The position numbers were made by a program, and so were the translations under genes. Shown here piece after piece: positions 1,267 to 35,912 of a stretch of 46,115 nucleotides of DNA; positions within the stretch are counted from its first letter, which is position 1; each line of letters begins with the position of its first letter. Origin of the DNA: a virus (lineage: Duplodnaviria > Caudoviricetes). A model generated the notes under the pieces. The model was not told where the DNA came from and did no database searches. It was given only the letters and a program-made list of their open reading frames with translations. The stretch spans positions 1 through 46,115 of the IMG/VR virus record IMGVR_UViG_3300031228_000011, one strand, 5' to 3'.

Positions 1267-1331
1267 CCCATCACCCGCCACGCCGCCGCAATCCGCCCAT
1301 CGTAGCCCTTCTGCCCCTTGCCGTTAGACAT
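1263..1331 (-). CDS. 22-aa mini-ORF carrying a second copy of the endolysin C-terminus (MSNGKGQKGYDGRIAAAWRVMG)
   Basis: 17 residues identical to the endolysin end; GGAG 8 nt before the ATG; stop overlaps the holin ATG. Confidence 0.7.
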   Translation of the reverse strand: MSNGKGQKGYDGRIAAAWRVMG

Positions 1332-1353
1332 AACATTTGCTCCGTGATAACGG

Positions 1354-1851
1354 TTGCCGATGGACACGGAAGAATGGCGGCCGACGCGCGAGGTCGAGGG
1401 CTACGAGGTCAGCAACTTGGGCCGCGTTCGGCACGCCGAGAAGGGCACAATCAAAGGCGCACCCGTCGCCCGCAACGGGTATCGAGTTGTCAATCTGTGG
1501 CGGCACAACAAAGGGCGGGTCTGCTACGTCCACTCCTTGGTGGCCGAAGCTTTCATCGGCACTCGGCCGCCGCAAATGTCGGTCAACCACATCGACGGCG
1601 ATAGGTTGAACAACCTGCCGGCGAACCTCGAATATATGACGCTTGCCGATAACTCGCGCGATCAAGCCGCTAACGGCAGGGCCGCCAAGGGTGAGCGCAA
1701 TGGACACGCGAAGCTGACGGCAGATCAGGTTCGCGAGATAAAGCGACGCGCAGCCAACGGGGCGCGCACATGCGATCTGGCCATAGAGTTCGGTGTAGGT
1801 TCGCCTATCATCAGCCAAATCAAGAGCGGGACGCGCTGGGGACATATCTAG
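1354..1851 (+). CDS. NUMOD4-HNH homing endonuclease (antisense to the late operon)
   Basis: EEWRP...YEVSNLGRVR (NUMOD4), VHSLVAEAFIG...VNHIDGDRLNN..NLEY (HNH_3), C-terminal AKLT...HTH. Confidence 0.92.
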   Translation: MPMDTEEWRPTREVEGYEVSNLGRVRHAEKGTIKGAPVARNGYRVVNLWRHNKGRVCYVHSLVAEAFIGTRPPQMSVNHIDGDRLNNLPANLEYMTLADNSRDQAANGRAAKGERNGHAKLTADQVREIKRRAANGARTCDLAIEFGVGSPIISQIKSGTRWGHI

Positions 1852-2543
1852 CCGCCGGTCCGCCATGCGGCTGCAATTCTGCCATCATAGCCTTTCTGAC
1901 CTTTCCCATTAAAACCACGCGCGAAGGCGAGGCAGTTGGCCGGGTTGCCGTCGATCTGGCGCAGCGCGCCGATCAGGCCGTTGACGCGGATAAACCGGGC
2001 GAAGGCGTCATAGTGGGCGAATTCGCTCAGGCTGAGCTGCCACACGAACTCGCGCACGCTGGAGTAACCGAGCGCCTTCCAGTGCGCGCCCATGATCTGG
2101 AACTTGCCGAAGCTCGCGCATTCGGCGGCAACGTCTAAGCCGAACCGCCCGGCCGCATCGGCGAGCTTTTCCCAACTGTCGTTGATGCCGTCATTGTCGG
2201 CGTCCGTCGTGTAGCCGCCCGGCGAGGGATTCGACAGGAACGGCACGGCGATGCGAACGCGCCGCCACAGGTAATGCCGCTCCCACAGGGCCTTCAGCAG
2301 ACCGTCGTTATCCCAGCCCCCGCCGGCACTCTCAACCTTGGCGACGGCTCGCAGGTTGCGTGCCGGGGCGCCAAGGGTGTTGGCGATCAGCGTCACCTCG
2401 TCGGGCGTCACTGCGGGCGCGTTGCGGTTGCGGAACACCTCGATCACCGCGGCGCGGGTCATCGGTCCCCATGCGCCGTCCTCAACCAGGTGCGCGCCTT
2501 TCGAGTTGAACCAGCGTTGCAGTTCGCGTGTGCGCTCGCTCAT
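1848..2543 (-). CDS. Endolysin: peptidoglycan-binding N-terminus plus N-acetylmuramidase (DUF3380-type)
   Basis: DGAWGPMT PG-binding motif; AVAKVESAG, ALWERH, SFGKFQIMG.H, FARGFNG muramidase motifs. Confidence 0.88.
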   Translation of the reverse strand: MSERTRELQRWFNSKGAHLVEDGAWGPMTRAAVIEVFRNRNAPAVTPDEVTLIANTLGAPARNLRAVAKVESAGGGWDNDGLLKALWERHYLWRRVRIAVPFLSNPSPGGYTTDADNDGINDSWEKLADAAGRFGLDVAAECASFGKFQIMGAHWKALGYSSVREFVWQLSLSEFAHYDAFARFIRVNGLIGALRQIDGNPANCLAFARGFNGKGQKGYDGRIAAAWRTGG

Positions 2544-2911
2544 TCGCCTTCTCCCGTCTTTTTCCTGGCCTTGTCGGCGGCGACGTTCAGTTGCGCGAGC
2601 TGCTTCGCATCGCCGTAGCCCTGCATCAGCCCCCGCAGGCGGGCGACTTCTTCCTCGCTCTCGGCGTGCTTGCGTTCGCATTCGGCGAGACCCTCACGCA
2701 ACGAAACGCACTCGGCCTTCATGCGGTCTATTTCCTGCCGGAAGTCGTCCAGAAGGGATTGCAACCCGGTATCGAGCCGGTCTTCCTTCTTGTCGATCCG
2801 GCCGGCAACGAAGCCCGCCAACCAACGCACCACGAGAAAGGAGAAGCCGAAGCTCATCCCCCCGACGCTGGTGTAGAATGCCGTCGAGAGCGCGACCCCG
2901 GATTCGATCAT
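2540..2911 (-). CDS. TM plus coiled-coil protein upstream of the endolysin (holin/antiholin-like)
   Basis: MIESGVALS...FSFLVVRWLAGF TM then a long coiled coil; coupled to both neighbours. Confidence 0.6.
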   Translation of the reverse strand: MIESGVALSTAFYTSVGGMSFGFSFLVVRWLAGFVAGRIDKKEDRLDTGLQSLLDDFRQEIDRMKAECVSLREGLAECERKHAESEEEVARLRGLMQGYGDAKQLAQLNVAADKARKKTGEGE

Positions 2912-3378
2912 GCTGCATCCTCGTGCCTCGCTCTCGGGTTGAAATGTTCCCAAGGGTTGAACTGTCGGTTGAATGCTCGCACGCGCAGGGCCAGTTCGTT
3001 GACGTAGGGCAGGCCGAACAGCATCTGTCCCGCCACCAGCCACCAGCCCGCCCACCAGCTTTCCGTGGTGTGCCCGCCGTGGAGCCAGGCGTAGACCCCG
3101 AGCCCCGTGGTCAAGGGGATGCTCGCCGCGATCAGCTTCTCCGCGATGTCGAAGCGGCGCTTGCGGGTCAGGAACCAGACGATGATCGCCGCATCGCAGA
3201 CCACGAATAGCGCAAAGCTGTCGCCGCCTGTCGCCTGCCACCAGGTTTGCTGAATGCCCCACCCCAGGCAGATCAGCAGCCCGGCGGAACGGACGCTGCC
3301 CAACAGGCATAGCCGCACGGCGTTGAGCGCCAGGCTCAAGCCGCACAGCACGACCAGGACGAGCAGCGTCCAGTGCAT
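2908..3378 (-). CDS. Multi-pass (about 5 TM) membrane protein
   Basis: Successive hydrophobic, Trp-rich segments; TGATG coupling with the upstream peptide gene. Confidence 0.7.
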   Translation of the reverse strand: MHWTLLVLVVLCGLSLALNAVRLCLLGSVRSAGLLICLGWGIQQTWWQATGGDSFALFVVCDAAIIVWFLTRKRRFDIAEKLIAASIPLTTGLGVYAWLHGGHTTESWWAGWWLVAGQMLFGLPYVNELALRVRAFNRQFNPWEHFNPRARHEDAA

Positions 3379-3533
3379 CACGGCTCGCCGGGAGGTCCAT
3401 TGCCGGTGCCGCCGCTCTGTGTCGAAGCGCCGCCGAGCTGTTCCATCGCGGCGCGCAGGCGTTCGGCCTTTTCTTCGTCGCCGGCCGCTTCGGCTTCGGC
3501 AAGCTGTTCGGCGAGCTTTTCGTATGCGTTCAT
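3378..3533 (-). CDS. 51-aa acidic peptide ending STQSGGTGNGPPGEP
   Basis: Strong AAGGAG RBS; stop overlaps the next ATG; below the ORF-track cutoff, translated by hand. Confidence 0.65.
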   Translation of the reverse strand: MNAYEKLAEQLAEAEAAGDEEKAERLRAAMEQLGGASTQSGGTGNGPPGEP

Positions 3534-31369: not shown

Positions 31370-31602
31370 CGTGCCCTCCGAACATGGCCGGAGACATAGG
31401 TTTGGCCTGATTCACGAGCGGCACGGCGAGCAGCAAAGCTGGCTTCACGATCAGACCACCAGGTTTCCAGTTCAGTAGGGGGCTTGGTGAATAGGCGGTG
31501 CCAGAAGCTCACGGGCGAACCCCTTTCGGGGCCGGGCTCTCGCCTACGGCTACGCACTGCGACACACAGCGCCAGATCGCCGGGCTTCCAATCGTCGCTC
31601 AT
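31366..31602 (-). CDS. Hypothetical protein
   Basis: DW.PGDLALCV N-terminus; coupled to neighbours. Confidence 0.55.
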   Translation of the reverse strand: MSDDWKPGDLALCVAVRSRRREPGPERGSPVSFWHRLFTKPPTELETWWSDREASFAARRAARESGQTYVSGHVRRAR

Positions 31603-32015
31603 GCCGCCTTCACCTTCGCGAACTTGCCGCGCAGCACATTGTCCTCACATGGAGCAATGTCGCGGCCGGCGGGTGATTCAGGGTGATGCGCCTGGTTCTT
31701 CGTCGCCAGCCAGTCCGTCATCGCCGTGGCGAGTTCGTCGTGGTCGATGTCCTCGGGCACCTGGACAATCGCGCGGCCATCCGGCAGCAACAGGCTCAGC
31801 AGCTCGTCGGGAACCACGCCGGTCAGCTTGCAAAGCGCGGAGACAGGCATTTCCGCCGTCTCGCCGTTGTTCCCCGCGTAGGAGCGCAAGGTGCTGTAAG
31901 GGATGCCGCTGTCGAGGCTGATCGCCTTGAGGGTCAATCCGTTACGCTGGGCAATGCGGAAGATGCGTTCCTGCGTTGCCTTTGTGCAGTGCGGAATCTC
32001 GCTATCGGTCGCCAT
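31599..32015 (-). CDS. HTH regulator (possibly CII-like)
   Basis: LTLKAISLDSGIPYSTLRSY HTH; GAGGAG RBS; in the cro operon. Confidence 0.65.
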   Translation of the reverse strand: MATDSEIPHCTKATQERIFRIAQRNGLTLKAISLDSGIPYSTLRSYAGNNGETAEMPVSALCKLTGVVPDELLSLLLPDGRAIVQVPEDIDHDELATAMTDWLATKNQAHHPESPAGRDIAPCEDNVLRGKFAKVKAA

Positions 32016-32017
32016 GA

Positions 32018-33763
32018 TTACGCTCGCTCCTCGCGGCTATTCGGTTGGGCATGGAAAACAGGGGAAACACCGCGAGGGCTCTCGGGCTTATTGTGAGAGA
32101 GATCGTGGGAGGGATTGAGGTGGTCGACTTGGTCGATGCGCCGGCCGATCCAAGCCATGACGGGGACGGCCATGCTGTTGCCGAGCGCCTTGTAGCGCGG
32201 GCCGTCGGGGCACTGCGCTTTCCCGCGCCAGGGGATGTTGGTGTAGTCGTCGGGGAAGCCTTGGAGACGTTCGCACTCGACGGGCGTAAGCCTTCTTACC
32301 GCGCTCGCTTGGCTCGCATGTAATGGAGGCCGCACAGCCCCTTCGCGTGAGCCGTCTCCCCGCACTCCCGGCATTGCGTCTTGGGCGGTGTCCCCACTTT
32401 CAGGGGATCGCCCCAGCGCTTGAAGCGCAGCAGATGCTTGTTGCAGAAGCCGCGCCCCTTCTGCGGTTCCCCGCAGATGGTGCAGGGCGTCCTCGGGCGA
32501 TGCTCCTTCATGTGACAGCTTCGACAGAGCCGCATCAAGTTCTCGAGCCGGTTGTCCTGCCAGTCGTCGTTCTTGTGGTGAACCTCGGCTCGCGAGTTCC
32601 CGCAATGCTCGCACGGCCCCGGCGGGCATATCTTCCGCGCGTGGTAGTGCGCTGTCATCCAGGAAACCATCGTGACCTCCAGTAACATAAGCCACCGCTG
32701 GCATCACCCCCGCATTGGCATGGCTCTTGCTGTGACCGCCTGCCCGCAGAGTGGGGCTGCAATCCTCCATCGCATCGGCGCCATGGTCCTTGGCGGAGAA
32801 GGCGATGGGCTGCGCCAGTATCGCGCCGGGGCCACCGCCGTTGTTGCCACCCATTGCGGACAGGCACGGCCAAACCATTTCGGGCGTGACCAGTGCATCG
32901 CCTTGAAAGCCAGTTTTGACGGGCACGGGTGCAGGCTTGCCATCGTTGTCGATCCGCAGGGCCACCGGCACCAGCGGCGTCCCGCGTCCGGTTCCATCCT
33001 CGCTGGCGTCGAAGCCTTCACCGCGAAGGGAATGGGCGACGCAATATTCGTCCATCCCATCCCGGCCCGTGCCCGTGCCCGTGCGGGTGGTCATGGCGGG
33101 AACTACGTCAAGGCAGATGATGTGTCCGGCCTGGCCCTGGTTGTCATCTGCGCCGCAAGTTCCAACGCCTGTTGCAGTGAGTGCGGCAACTGCCGGTCCC
33201 GCTTGGCGGCTCGGCGCAATATTCCACGACAGGCTGTGGCGCTCAAAAAGAACCGCCGCAGCACGTCGCCAGTCTCCAGAATGTCCAACAACGAACACGC
33301 GGCGGCGCCGTTGGGGAATTCCAAAGTGCTGAGCGTCCAAGATTCGGTAGGCGAACCCATACCCGAGTTCGACCAGCCCTCCGAGGATGGAACCAAAGTC
33401 CCGTCCGCCTCCCGACGACAGGACGCCGGGGACGTTCTCCCACACCAGCCATCGGGGCCGTGTGCGATCAGCAAGGCGGAGAAACTCAAGCGCGAGGTTG
33501 CCACGGTCGTCAGCCAGTCCGCCTCTAAGGCCGGCGATGCTGAACGATTGACAGGGGGTGCCTCCGACAAGAAGGTCAATTGGCCCATATTCGTCGGCTC
33601 CGATCGTGGTGAAGTCGCCGTGAAGCGGAACATGCGGGTAATGGTGCGCCAGCACGGCGCGCGGGAATGCCTCTATCTCGGAGAAGAACGCAGGCTCCCA
33701 TCCCAGCGGGTGCCAGGCAGCGGTTGCGGCTTCTATTCCGCTGCAAACACTTCCGTATCTCAC
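32018..33763 (-). CDS. dcm: DNA (cytosine-5) methyltransferase with an enlarged variable region
   Basis: Motif I SVCSGIEA, IV GGTPCQSFS, VI ENVPG, VIII QRRRRVF, IX RRLTPVECERLQGFP, X YKALGNSM. Confidence 0.95.
   Translation of the reverse strand: MRYGSVCSGIEAATAAWHPLGWEPAFFSEIEAFPRAVLAHHYPHVPLHGDFTTIGADEYGPIDLLVGGTPCQSFSIAGLRGGLADDRGNLALEFLRLADRTRPRWLVWENVPGVLSSGGGRDFGSILGGLVELGYGFAYRILDAQHFGIPQRRRRVFVVGHSGDWRRAAAVLFERHSLSWNIAPSRQAGPAVAALTATGVGTCGADDNQGQAGHIICLDVVPAMTTRTGTGTGRDGMDEYCVAHSLRGEGFDASEDGTGRGTPLVPVALRIDNDGKPAPVPVKTGFQGDALVTPEMVWPCLSAMGGNNGGGPGAILAQPIAFSAKDHGADAMEDCSPTLRAGGHSKSHANAGVMPAVAYVTGGHDGFLDDSALPRAEDMPAGAVRALRELASRGSPQERRLAGQPARELDAALSKLSHEGASPEDALHHLRGTAEGARLLQQASAALQALGRSPESGDTAQDAMPGVRGDGSREGAVRPPLHASQASAVRRLTPVECERLQGFPDDYTNIPWRGKAQCPDGPRYKALGNSMAVPVMAWIGRRIDQVDHLNPSHDLSHNKPESPRGVSPVFHAQPNSREERA
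32296..32670 (-). CDS. HNH endonuclease with Zn-finger repeats, nested in the +1 frame of dcm
   Basis: CEHCG...VHHKNDDWQDNRLENL..LC.SCH..EH plus two C..C......G.C..H repeats; GGAGG RBS before the ATG at 32670. Confidence 0.85.
   Translation of the reverse strand: MVSWMTAHYHARKICPPGPCEHCGNSRAEVHHKNDDWQDNRLENLMRLCRSCHMKEHRPRTPCTICGEPQKGRGFCNKHLLRFKRWGDPLKVGTPPKTQCRECGETAHAKGLCGLHYMRAKRAR
33103..33588 (-). CDS. Overprinted polypeptide in the +1 frame of dcm, resembling the M.EcoHK31I beta subunit N-terminal region
   Basis: WSNSGM...W.....E.P......SL.DILE......FFLS..AC.GILRRA.KR...LP..L..AL. Confidence 0.7.
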   Translation of the reverse strand: MGQLTFLSEAPPVNRSASPALEADWLTTVATSRLSFSALLIAHGPDGWCGRTSPASCRREADGTLVPSSEGWSNSGMGSPTESWTLSTLEFPNGAAACSLLDILETGDVLRRFFLSATACRGILRRAAKRDRQLPHSLQQALELAAQMTTRARPDTSSALT

Positions 33764-34290
33764 TGCGCGCCCTCCACATATTTGAGGACGGCAAGGAGTT
33801 CGGCAGCGGTCGCGTCCGACTTGATGCGGTTAGCCCGGAACGAAATTACCCTTACGTTGGAGGGCGTGTAGCCATGCTCGGGAATGATGCGGTCCAAGGA
33901 TGCGCGATGATCGCGCGGCCCATCGGACGACAATGTGATGCCCAACACGGGGCACACGGCCGGGATCGTGATGTCGTCCGGCGCAATGGTGAACGGAAGA
34001 CCGCGAGCTCGCGCACGTTTGCGAGCGTCGTAGAACATGCAGTATTCGGTGGTCTGAGACTTTCCGTGCGAACGGAACATCGCTCCCATGCGGTCCCGGC
34101 GAAAACAGCCGCAGCTTCGATTTTTGCCGAAGCGAAGGTTGGAGCCCGGCAGCACAAGGACGCCGCCGCAATCGCAGGTGCAGCGCCAACGCCATTGGTC
34201 ACGGCGCCGACCTTCAACGCGCGCCGCGACAGTCAACCGACCAAAGCGTTGGCCCAATTCGATGCCGGAACAGACGGAGCCGTAGCGCAC
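33760..34290 (-). CDS. HNH-type homing endonuclease whose first 11 residues duplicate the dcm N-terminus
   Basis: GQRFGRLTV...W.C.CDCG...SCGC domain; CPVLG...SLDRI....GY...NV..IS..AN..K nuclease motif; GTG at 34290 coupled to the upstream TAG. Confidence 0.85.
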   Translation of the reverse strand: MRYGSVCSGIELGQRFGRLTVAARVEGRRRDQWRWRCTCDCGGVLVLPGSNLRFGKNRSCGCFRRDRMGAMFRSHGKSQTTEYCMFYDARKRARARGLPFTIAPDDITIPAVCPVLGITLSSDGPRDHRASLDRIIPEHGYTPSNVRVISFRANRIKSDATAAELLAVLKYVEGAQ

Positions 34291-34451
34291 TATGCCGCGC
34301 TCCACGGATCGACCGTATCATTCGCCGGTCCATCAACGTGAGCCAGCACCCTCATTGCGGGCGCGATCCGGGCAGACACGATCCATGCCGTTCGGCCGTG
34401 GAGGCTGTTGATGAGGCGTGTTCGCCAATGTGGGAGGAAGGGGCGGATCAC
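34290..34451 (-). CDS. Hypothetical protein
   Basis: GGGAG RBS before GTG; TAGTG coupling with the endonuclease gene; start uncertain. Confidence 0.45.
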   Translation of the reverse strand: MIRPFLPHWRTRLINSLHGRTAWIVSARIAPAMRVLAHVDGPANDTVDPWSAA

Positions 34452-34489
34452 CGGATTGACTCCCGGCTCGCGGGTGTCAGGATTGACCG

Positions 34490-34786
34490 ATGGAAACTCT
34501 CTCGATCCTGGGGCTGGTCGTGGCCGTCGTCGTTCCAACGGTTGCCGGTCTGGGGGCCCTGGCCTTTCGCGAGAGACGCGCATGGTCTCGGGCCAAAGAC
34601 GTCATCGTGCGCTACGGCGCGCTCTTGTTTCTTGTCGTTTCCATATTGCTGGCCGGTGTCACTCTCGCCGATTACCTTGGCCCCGATGCAATCGGTTACG
34701 CGCAGGTCATCTATGGCATCATTGCCGCAGCCTCTGCTGCGCTCGTTCTGGTCGCGCTGGCCTTCGACCACCTCACGCGGGATTAG
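34490..34786 (+). CDS. 3-TM membrane protein, antisense to the cro operon
   Basis: Three hydrophobic segments; fills the gap between minus-strand genes. Confidence 0.65.
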   Translation: METLSILGLVVAVVVPTVAGLGALAFRERRAWSRAKDVIVRYGALLFLVVSILLAGVTLADYLGPDAIGYAQVIYGIIAAASAALVLVALAFDHLTRD

Positions 34787-34788
34787 CG

Positions 34789-35022
34789 TCACAGCGCCAC
34801 CTCAATTCCGAGGTGAACAAGGTGGATGAACCCGAGCGTCAGCAGCCCACACTTGAGGGCAAACCATGCTGCGTGGCGGTAAGCCTGCGCGTCAGTGGTC
34901 GCCTTGGCCGGGTATTCGCCAACAAGGGCGATGAACCGCTTGGCAGAGGCGCGCAGATCGTGACGCTCGTTAAGGCGCCAGAGCGTCATGTAGAGTGCGC
35001 GGTAGAAGGCTGCGGGCGGCAT
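34789..35022 (-). CDS. Hypothetical protein
   Basis: TGATG coupling with cro. Confidence 0.5.
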   Translation of the reverse strand: MPPAAFYRALYMTLWRLNERHDLRASAKRFIALVGEYPAKATTDAQAYRHAAWFALKCGLLTLGFIHLVHLGIEVAL

Positions 35023-35249
35023 CAGGCAGCGGCCTGCGTCGGCGTCTCCGAAATGTCGGGAAGCGCGGACAAATCGGGCGGGAGCGGCTTGCCCTGTTTC
35101 TCCGCTATCAGCCTTAGATGGGCCAGTCGCGAGGCGGGGATGCCGATGGACCGCCAGCTATGGACGGTTGATACGGGGGCCTCGATCAACTTGGCCACGG
35201 CACTAGTGCCTCCAAGGTGATGCAGGACTTTCTCAGCGTCGGTGCTCAT
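35022..35249 (-). CDS. cro: Cro-like repressor
   Basis: LGG.SAVA........V.SWR..GIP..R HTH; divergent from cI. Confidence 0.85.
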   Translation of the reverse strand: MSTDAEKVLHHLGGTSAVAKLIEAPVSTVHSWRSIGIPASRLAHLRLIAEKQGKPLPPDLSALPDISETPTQAAA

Positions 35250-35259
35250 GCGAGGTATA

Positions 35260-35323
35260 TTGCGACAATCGCAACTCTGACGCAAGCGGAATGTTGCGAT
35301 AATCGCTTTTGCGATTTTCGTAT
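35260..35323. promoter_or_regulatory. Operator array between cro and cI (TTGCGA-N3-TCGCAA)
   Basis: 35260-35274 perfect; 35294-35308 and 35309-35323 degenerate; overlaps a TTGCGT-N17-CAATAT promoter candidate for cro. Confidence 0.8.
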
Positions 35324-35342
35324 AGAACCGCTTGATGATCCG

Positions 35343-35912
35343 ATGGATCAGATGGCTATCGTGGCGGCGCTCCGGGAGCGGAAATGCAAGCAGGTGCACA
35401 TCGCGCGAATGCTGGGCATATCGACCGACAAGGTCTCGAAGTCGTTCAAGGGGCCGGATGTCAGGCGCTTCACCGCGGAAGAAGCGCAAACCCTGCTCAC
35501 CTTCCTGGGCATGGCGCCACCGACACCAACAGGCGTTGCAAAGCTGCCGATCATTGGTCTGGTTCCGGCCGGCAACTGGCGCGAAGCGGTGGAGCATCCG
35601 ATGGGCTGGATGCCCTCCCCTGACCCGTCACTCCCCAAGGAGGCCTTCGTCGTAAGGGTCGAAGGCGATAGCATGGATGAGCGCGCGCCGGAGGGGACGC
35701 ATATCATCGTCAACCCTCTCGACAAGCAGCTCGTCACCCGCAAACTTTACGTGATCCGCAATGCGGAAGGCGACGTTACGTTCAAGCAGTTCATGCCCGA
35801 CCCTGCTCGGTTCGTGCCGGTCTCATCCAACAAGGATCACAAGCCGATCATGGTCGGCGAGGATATGTTCGAGATCGTAGGCCGCGCCGTGATGAAAGCT
35901 GAGTGGCTTTGA
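35343..35912 (+). CDS. cI: CI-like repressor (HTH plus S24 autopeptidase)
   Basis: N-terminal HTH, G.VPAG cleavage site, V.GDSM catalytic Ser, TFK catalytic Lys. Confidence 0.93.
   Translation: MDQMAIVAALRERKCKQVHIARMLGISTDKVSKSFKGPDVRRFTAEEAQTLLTFLGMAPPTPTGVAKLPIIGLVPAGNWREAVEHPMGWMPSPDPSLPKEAFVVRVEGDSMDERAPEGTHIIVNPLDKQLVTRKLYVIRNAEGDVTFKQFMPDPARFVPVSSNKDHKPIMVGEDMFEIVGRAVMKAEWL

Follow-up and report, generated by a model that had tools for sequence, protein, structure and literature searches.

The closest described counterparts of the locus analysed here are the mORFs, gene hybrids of fungal mitochondria reported for atp6 of Allomyces macrogynus and for atp6, atp9, cox2 and nad3 of Glomus (PMC3630166, PMC4019555, PMC7487136). 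In such hybrids a free-standing endonuclease gene lies in a conserved gene and supplies one end of that gene as a divergent copy, which becomes functional; the native end is left stranded, and no splicing is involved. A duplicated gene end that flanks a nuclease gene, one copy completing the invaded gene, is also present at the start of a C5-cytosine methyltransferase gene in IMGVR_UViG_3300031228_000011, a virus record (Duplodnaviria; Caudoviricetes) of 46,115 nucleotides (nt) that was analysed at its full length and is called the window below; it is the whole 46-kb assembly and, with a repressor and an integrase present, reads as a temperate tailed phage. mORFs mostly concern 3' ends of 51–279 nt (PMC3630166 Table 2) and LAGLIDADG or GIY-YIG enzymes, although an N-terminal duplication is mentioned for atp9 (PMC7487136). 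In contrast, the window element concerns a 5' end of 27–33 nt in a phage, has its own ribosome site, encodes an apparently PacI-like enzyme and displays focused synonymous change.

Other known systems share single features with this locus. The intronless homing genes of phage T4, Seg and Mob, likewise consist of an intron-less nuclease gene adjoining a conserved gene, and are described as cassettes without promoters that rely on host signals and contain embedded signals for the gene downstream, and the distribution of the window element resembles theirs; however, Seg and Mob cleave hundreds to thousands of base pairs from the insertion site, whereas insertion in the window is predicted at the target itself, and the available part of PMC2988022 describes no duplicated gene end for them. 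Fractured genes, or Aeh1-type genes-in-pieces, are likewise conserved enzyme genes of phages with a free-standing endonuclease lodged in them, but their host protein arises as two parts, which split inteins or assembly bring together (PMC2677866), whilst the window methyltransferase is made whole by the duplicated start. The hidden out-of-frame HNH genes of phage methylases, exemplified by ShiLan (PMC11855218), represent another splicing-free invasion of methyltransferases; they are read through in the host frame, unlike the nuclease considered here, which replaces the start, and correspond to a second, separate element of the window at 32296-32688. PacI, finally, recognises an 8-bp palindrome as an orphan restriction enzyme, and the consulted parts of PMC5714182 and PMC4081073 do not describe it as a homing enzyme. 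A literature search, with supplements and subscription papers outside its scope, returned no phage precedent for a duplicated recoded start, and the portions seen of the ICP1 survey (10.1101/2023.03.23.533998) and of the Skunavirus paper (PMC12724721) contain none. The parts that appear new are thus 5' replacement in phages, the PacI-like enzyme, the predicted six-base core of the target, and the convergence of two families on one site. The earlier note on this DNA had suggested a general "recode-and-replace" strategy: the layout is indeed family-wide, but its precedent was already published for fungal mitochondria (PMC3630166).

The nuclease gene is flanked by a duplicated methyltransferase start, an anatomy that recurs in its family and is accompanied by a bias at methyltransferase codons 9–10, by a scattered distribution of the occupied alleles, and by a conserved PacI-like D-R...Y...N...N motif. 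The copy that opens the nuclease gene (the stub) resembles a native start that was displaced, and the one that opens the methyltransferase gene (the replacement) resembles a start borne by the element, as judged from the sequence. The parts of the locus are as follows:

34290..34451, minus strand: upstream open reading frame (ORF) of 53 codons, seen in the sequence, its TAG overlapping the GTG of the stub
34300..34303, minus strand: GGAG, ribosome-binding-like site 5' of the stub, by consensus match only
34258..34290, minus strand: stub, likely the displaced native methyltransferase start (motif I, codons 1–11), in frame with the nuclease
33760..34290, minus strand: endonuclease of 176 amino acids (aa), PHROG 3322, with an N-terminal beta/Cys-rich domain and a predicted PacI-like His-Me finger
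33771..33775, minus strand: GGAGG, ribosome-binding-like site for the replacement start, inside the last nuclease codons (Y-V-E-G)
33731..33763, minus strand: replacement methyltransferase start with rare codons, its GTG overlapping the nuclease TGA
33734..33739, minus strand: codons 9–10, GGA ATA in place of GGC ATC, the recoding diagnostic for the family and predicted core of the destroyed target site
32018..33763, minus strand: C5-cytosine methyltransferase of 581 aa, the host gene (PF00145 E=2e-49; TIGR00675)

The duplication of 11 codons described earlier proved exact on re-translation: both copies read (V/M)RYGSVCSGIE and differ at 12/33 nt and 8/11 codons, always synonymously, the longest identical run being 5 nt. 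The couplings are likewise as described, TAG/GTG linking the stub to the upstream ORF, which matches no Pfam or PHROG family, and GTG/TGA linking the methyltransferase to the nuclease stop. The insert is coding throughout from stub to replacement start and closes with a stop, and its ORF lies outside any intron or intein: Rfam at E<=1 gave no match in 31500-35500, with no group I intron ribozyme core, Pfam found no protein-splicing (intein) domain in the nuclease ORF, and no splicing is needed to make the downstream gene whole. Neither start has a remarkable RNA fold around it (z -0.45 and -1.33). When the whole window was scanned for peptides of >=7 aa that recur on the same strand within 1.5 kb, six duplications came up, namely the methyltransferase start (11 aa), an endolysin end (17 aa) and four of exactly 7 aa, which stand at the level of triplet shuffles (0–3 matches of >=7 aa in each of 20). 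One Logan contig covers 31800-35400 with zero differences, but it serves as an assembly check and not as independent support, because its run may be the DNA's own source.

When measured against 6044 codons of 17 window genes, stub codons are typical for the genome (P=0.59) and replacement codons extreme (P=3.5e-5), in agreement with the earlier note, and methyltransferase codon usage becomes typical again in the blocks from codon 12 onward. Comparison with de-duplicated nuclease-free ("free") alleles, which number 79 in all and 37 in a GC-rich subset with a third-position GC content (GC3) of >=0.6, locates the change more narrowly. GGC ATC stands at codons 9–10 in 26/37 GC-rich free alleles vs 0/14 alleles that carry the nuclease ("occupied"), and GG[AG]AT[AT] in 3/37 vs 11/14 (Fisher p=2e-6, for alleles that are not independent, since the 14 occupied ones share an ancestor element). 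Codon 9 is GGC in 11/13 stubs, and in 15 replacements it is GGA or GGG, with ATA, ATT, ATC or GTR at codon 10 and never a return to GGC ATC. GC3 over codons 2–11 is 0.42 in occupied vs 0.76 in free alleles (p=1e-4), and over codons 12–21 it is 0.71 vs 0.74 (p=0.24; n=10 vs 32 in both cases); the A/T shift is limited to codons 2–11 and is therefore not a general 5' bias. In the comparison with nuclease-free alleles that had been proposed as a check, the stub spelling is diagnostic at codons 9–10 only (GGC ATC to GG[AG] AT[AT]). The spelling AGA TAC GGA AGT, put forward as one that nuclease-free relatives should not have, fails as a test: Bcep22, nuclease-free at this locus, starts ATG AGA TAC GGA AGC and retains GGC ATC, so that AGA TAC GGA does not discriminate, and free alleles have AGA/AGG as their second codon more often than any other (32/74). 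Similarly, the silence of the replacement holds for the window but not always for its relatives, as codon 12 is Ser in 6/14 occupied vs 0/79 free alleles, a free set picked by likeness to the window gene. Between stub and replacement, codons 3–9 show 57 synonymous and 2 non-synonymous differences in 12 loci, with 17 and 0, respectively, for four out-of-frame stubs; this excess fits stubs that were recently displaced working starts. Two pairs of sister nuclease-free alleles, L042/L032 near 2995 and L014/L013 near 3001, set GGC ATC/ATT against GGA ATA; the GGA ATA of L014 and L042, which lack a nuclease, may be due to chance, co-conversion or deletion.

The arrangement extends across the nuclease family. 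A protein search gave 375 matches, of which the best 120 were listed; one of these (P0031) is a 109-aa fragment of the window's own gene, and a motif-I stub opens 53/119 of the listed homologs. Stub heads vary (RYL, IYG, RFG, KYL, TYG) and junctions fall after SG, SGI or SGIE. Since "IE[VI]G" also opens homologs without a stub (P0054, P0117), codons 10–11 may belong to the element; in place of the insertion proposed after codon 11, the common junction may lie after codon 9 or 10. Y[VM]E[GA]-like C-termini are frequent among the homologs. Another C-terminus, C-[DAGV]-[IFTS], closes 26 listed proteins, 16 of them with a stub and all 16 of the L class, and we infer that it is a shifted reading of the overlapping MR[YF]L start.

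DNA context was taken from three scans, which yielded 17 close loci including the window once one identical copy had been dropped. Of the 16 whose downstream sequence is available, window included, 14 have a methyltransferase start immediately after the nuclease. A stub is present in 12/17, in frame in eight; in the other four it is out of frame, and the nuclease that follows has an ATG of its own. Inheritance of the host start in frame, as the earlier note had it, consequently applies to the window but is optional in the family, given that 4/12 stubs are out of frame and 5/17 loci have none. Homologs at unrelated loci might have been expected to open with RYGSVCSGIE too if this peptide were the nuclease's own; at 34 other loci (32 distant ones plus L125 and L142, near-duplicates and contig-edge matches left out) there was neither duplication nor motif I, the cross-locus control being 0/300, and three distant loci of cultured phages gave 0/3, with no duplication and no 6-mer common to the two sides. 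In cultured phages, distant homologs adjoin or follow psbA, DNA polymerase or RNA polymerase, in the manner of free-standing homing genes. In Synechococcus phage S-SKS1 (L274, 1177-1716), for instance, psbA, reportedly the gene targeted by F-CphI, is immediately followed by a PacI-like homolog, a cultured test case for the enzyme type. Another distant homolog sits before a gene that we take to be thyX-like. At L119 (~2880-3516), an EndoVII-like Cys-rich segment precedes the PacI-like nuclease in frame, in the place of the stub, and domain shuffling between the two families is possible. At L140 (3001-3162), the nuclease is truncated to its catalytic tail, still before a replacement-type start, and reads as a decaying element. 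The nuclease tree is poorly resolved (12/102 branches starred), and for this reason was not used for the order of events.

The same layout at the same gene start is found with nucleases of the EndoVII family (PF02945), which is unrelated to the PacI-like one:

L049, 2522-3004: EndoVII, junction after codon 12, replacement GGG ATT
L221, 544-987: EndoVII, junction after codon 16, stub MRYLSVCSG, replacement MRFGSMFSG, GGC ATC kept
L207, about 2000-2393: EndoVII at the same methyltransferase start, no stub seen

L221 is the clearest foreign replacement and the one mixed case. A stub occurs in 9/120 listed EndoVII proteins, one of them nearly identical to the query, and further EndoVII loci showed the duplication in 1/68.

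As for the enzyme itself, the nuclease of the window matches no Pfam family at E<=0.01 and no NCBIfam family, but PHROG 3322 "endonuclease" (E=2e-31), and its residues 13–84 match PHROG 374. A structure model built from 64 sequences has a mean predicted local distance difference test score (pLDDT) of 90; the predicted PacI-like active-site motif reads D133 R134 ... G140 Y141 ... N145 ... N154. PacI was the top match, each time a weak one, by sequence profile (E=0.021) and by Foldseek (E=0.0039), and by VIA-align it was the sole chain with Z>=5 among 48,161 (Z=6.5, root mean square deviation 4.2, 94 residues; again weak). The segment aligned to this member of His-Me finger group 20 (PDB 3ldy, 3m7k) reads D-R-x5-G-Y-x3-N-x8-N, and D[RK]x5GYx3Nx8N is kept in 116/119 listed homologs; the aligned tyrosine is presumably the catalytic one of PacI. 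In PacI a loop tyrosine replaces the histidine general base (PMC5714182, PMC4081073), so the missing histidine gives no hint of a dead enzyme. By sequence and model, the enzyme thus looks PacI-like, with tyrosine in place of histidine, although identity is ~20% and the window nuclease has an extra N-terminal beta/Cys-rich domain. Assignment to the classical HNH families (PF01844, PF13392) was rejected, there being no Pfam match at that threshold and Arg/Lys at the His position.

On a methyltransferase tree of codons 12–185, occupied alleles are scattered, and a single clade for them was rejected by the approximately unbiased test with 11 rows (p-AU 0.0003) and with 8 rows (p-AU 0.0004), when three long-branch rows were left out, two of them carrying inserts that we take to be intein-like; two short rows are in neither tree. 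Most methyltransferase alleles lack the nuclease, the occupied ones differ widely in length and variable region, and the upstream neighbours of methyltransferase modules are varied. In a survey of 80 methyltransferase loci a duplicated start was present in just one, beside a nuclease of another family. The searches for an empty allele were negative: blastn against INPHARED gave methyltransferase-body matches only, cultured phages held no close nuclease (all 214 records <60% identity), and four sequencing runs contained no joint skipping the nuclease. No RNA data set was listed as a holder of the sequence. Scanning DNA for two copies of the motif separated by ~465-495 nt (spacings up to ~515 nt) gave one chance match, L147. 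The methyltransferases of L087 (3501 onward), L123 (906 onward) and L152 have their insert, presumably intein-like, at the P-C motif; L087 and L123 also hold the 5' nuclease, and L152 holds the overprinted HNH.

Taken together, we think it quite probable, on comparative sequence grounds, that the nuclease is an intron-less homing element which cuts free alleles near codons 9–12 and brings a ribosome-binding site together with a recoded, cut-resistant start. The enzyme would nick or cut the empty allele across the SG|IEAA codons (~TGY TCN/AGY GGC ATC GAR GCN GCN), near codons 9–12, and in repair on an occupied genome the short left arm would be the recipient's first 9–11 codons, with the methyltransferase body on the right. 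The recipient's start would then be left as a stub, often serving as the nuclease start, whilst the last codons of the element would give the GGAGG site and its stop would overlap a new start with respelled codons 2–11. Each copy would keep half a site, since the right half is missing from the stub and the left half is respelled in the replacement, and a carrier would be immune because neither copy holds the full site. The divergence between stub and replacement would likely also slow deletion between the copies. The predicted target (GGC ATC, codons 9–10) comes directly from the comparative data, and the family offers a testable case of a homing gene that invades a conserved coding motif without intron or intein. 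It would also bring a PacI-type tyrosine nuclease into the homing families and hint at where the orphan restriction enzyme came from.

Several observations weigh against this reading. No empty allele of the window phage was found, the nearest free alleles being 81-83% identical, and the three matches to PacI are weak. Searching stubs by peptide motif misses decayed stubs, which inflates the synonymous excess. GG[AG]AT[AT] is already present in 9/79 free alleles, L014 (82% to the window) and L042 among them, and 3/14 occupied alleles are without it. Stubs are closer than replacements to the five nearest free alleles in just 9/11 loci (p=0.07); of the 10 free alleles nearest to the window, 7 side with the stub and 3 with the replacement, and all 79 together split 38 vs 33, the remaining 8 being ties. 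In L125 and L142 the nuclease is not followed by a methyltransferase. Finally, the YL/FL class agrees between stub and replacement in 16/16 proteins where both are readable, and no mixed YL/YG case was seen among PacI-like loci, whereas frequent capture of unrelated recipients' starts should yield some; this suggests that homing takes place mostly between similar alleles or that the stub is co-converted.

Three other explanations have to be weighed against homing into codons 9–12. It could be that nuclease and replacement start are mobile as described but that the odd codons have nothing to do with immunity, being those of an inherited foreign allele, imposed by the ribosome site and stop that overlap them, or useful only against deletion between the direct repeats. 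The nuclease stop does fall inside replacement codons 1–5 in most loci and constrains them, but codons 9–10 lie beyond the overlap. Fungal mORF replacements have been explained by foreign alleles (PMC3630166), yet the GC content of the nuclease gene equals that of the genome (0.62 vs 0.62). Longest identical runs of 4–6 nt in 8/12 loci would suit a role against deletion; L118 and L120, however, keep runs of 16 and 12 nt and still differ at codons 9–10. The ancestor element common to the 14 occupied alleles also speaks for a reading without immunity, whereas the variation of the 15 replacements at codons 9–10, none reverting to GGC ATC, and the GGG ATT of the EndoVII element L049 speak against it, so that on balance we find this explanation improbable.

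The remaining two appear to us very unlikely, and equally so. In one, nuclease and methyltransferase form a restriction-modification pair and a tandem duplication has left the stub behind as its scar; in its favour, the closest solved relative, a restriction enzyme, and the abutment of the nuclease gene on a C5 methyltransferase can be quoted. Such a pair accords poorly with the single duplicated start among the 80 surveyed loci, with occupied alleles that are polyphyletic, widely different in length and variable region and outnumbered by nuclease-free ones, and with distant homologs that have no motif I nearby; moreover, PacI itself is reported without a methyltransferase (PMC5714182). In the other, a single old illegitimate insertion with target-site duplication was inherited vertically or moved with the methyltransferase module, and the copies drifted. 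The 16/16 class agreement fits this well, as do rare variants common to both copies in three loci (SIC in L090, VFSG in L118, SGV in L121), and methyltransferase modules have varied upstream neighbours anyway. On the other hand, one clade of occupied alleles is rejected, the out-of-frame stubs show no non-synonymous change against 17 synonymous ones, the drift is one-sided, toward rare codons on the functional copy, and the second nuclease family has its own junctions.

A broader proposition, on which we are evenly divided, is that splicing-free homing elements of the terminal-replacement kind form a broad class in phages, with at least two unrelated nuclease families having converged on C5 methyltransferase motif I, a stub renewed from each recipient as a 27–33 nt homology arm, and PacI-type tyrosine nucleases that are at root homing enzymes. 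If true, the orphan restriction enzyme PacI could derive from such homing enzymes; the 46-kb genome would hold two replacements, one 5' and one 3', and this methyltransferase would contain an overprinted element as well. From a practical point of view, annotation pipelines can mislabel or truncate such nucleases, because these open with a methyltransferase motif and escape Pfam, as illustrated by database entry P0031, which holds the window gene as a 109-aa fragment. Short synonymous duplications are a usable signature for the targets of free-standing nucleases.

The 3' replacement concerns the endolysin gene, where a 17-codon duplication flanks a NUMOD4-HNH gene on the opposite strand:

1275..1910: endolysin mirror of the methyltransferase case, as a whole
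1860-1910, minus strand: recoded 3' end of the endolysin gene
1275-1325, minus strand: stranded copy
1354-1851, plus strand: NUMOD4-HNH gene

A recognisable NGKGQKGY end is found in 4/31 related lysins, and in all four it starts with AAC GGC AAG, as in the stranded copy, whereas the attached one has AAT GGG AAA; the lysin of L162 differs by hand count at 6 positions from the stranded and at 13 from the attached copy. The comparison supports the parallel between the endolysin and methyltransferase cases drawn in the earlier note.

Inside the methyltransferase gene, two further ORFs are present:

32296..32688, minus strand: second, separate element, an HNH ORF that overprints the methyltransferase in a different frame, the host frame staying open
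33103..33633, minus strand: alternative-frame ORF without NCBIfam match

The host frame is open through the overprinted HNH in 10/12 examined related loci (14 found), and also in L053 and L036. The HNH ORF of the window is without an N-terminal part or domain that relatives have, and its TAA overlaps the rare codons GTA AGA AGG CTT (V-R-R-L), a possible recoded target. The alternative-frame ORF resembles, in our estimation, the beta chain (motif IX) of two-chain M.EcoHK31I-type enzymes, and because of this resemblance "dcm" is a loose label only for the methyltransferase. The two-chain arrangement of M.EcoHK31I has been described (PMC2836561). A similar alternative-frame ORF lies inside the methyltransferase of L086 (4008-4454).

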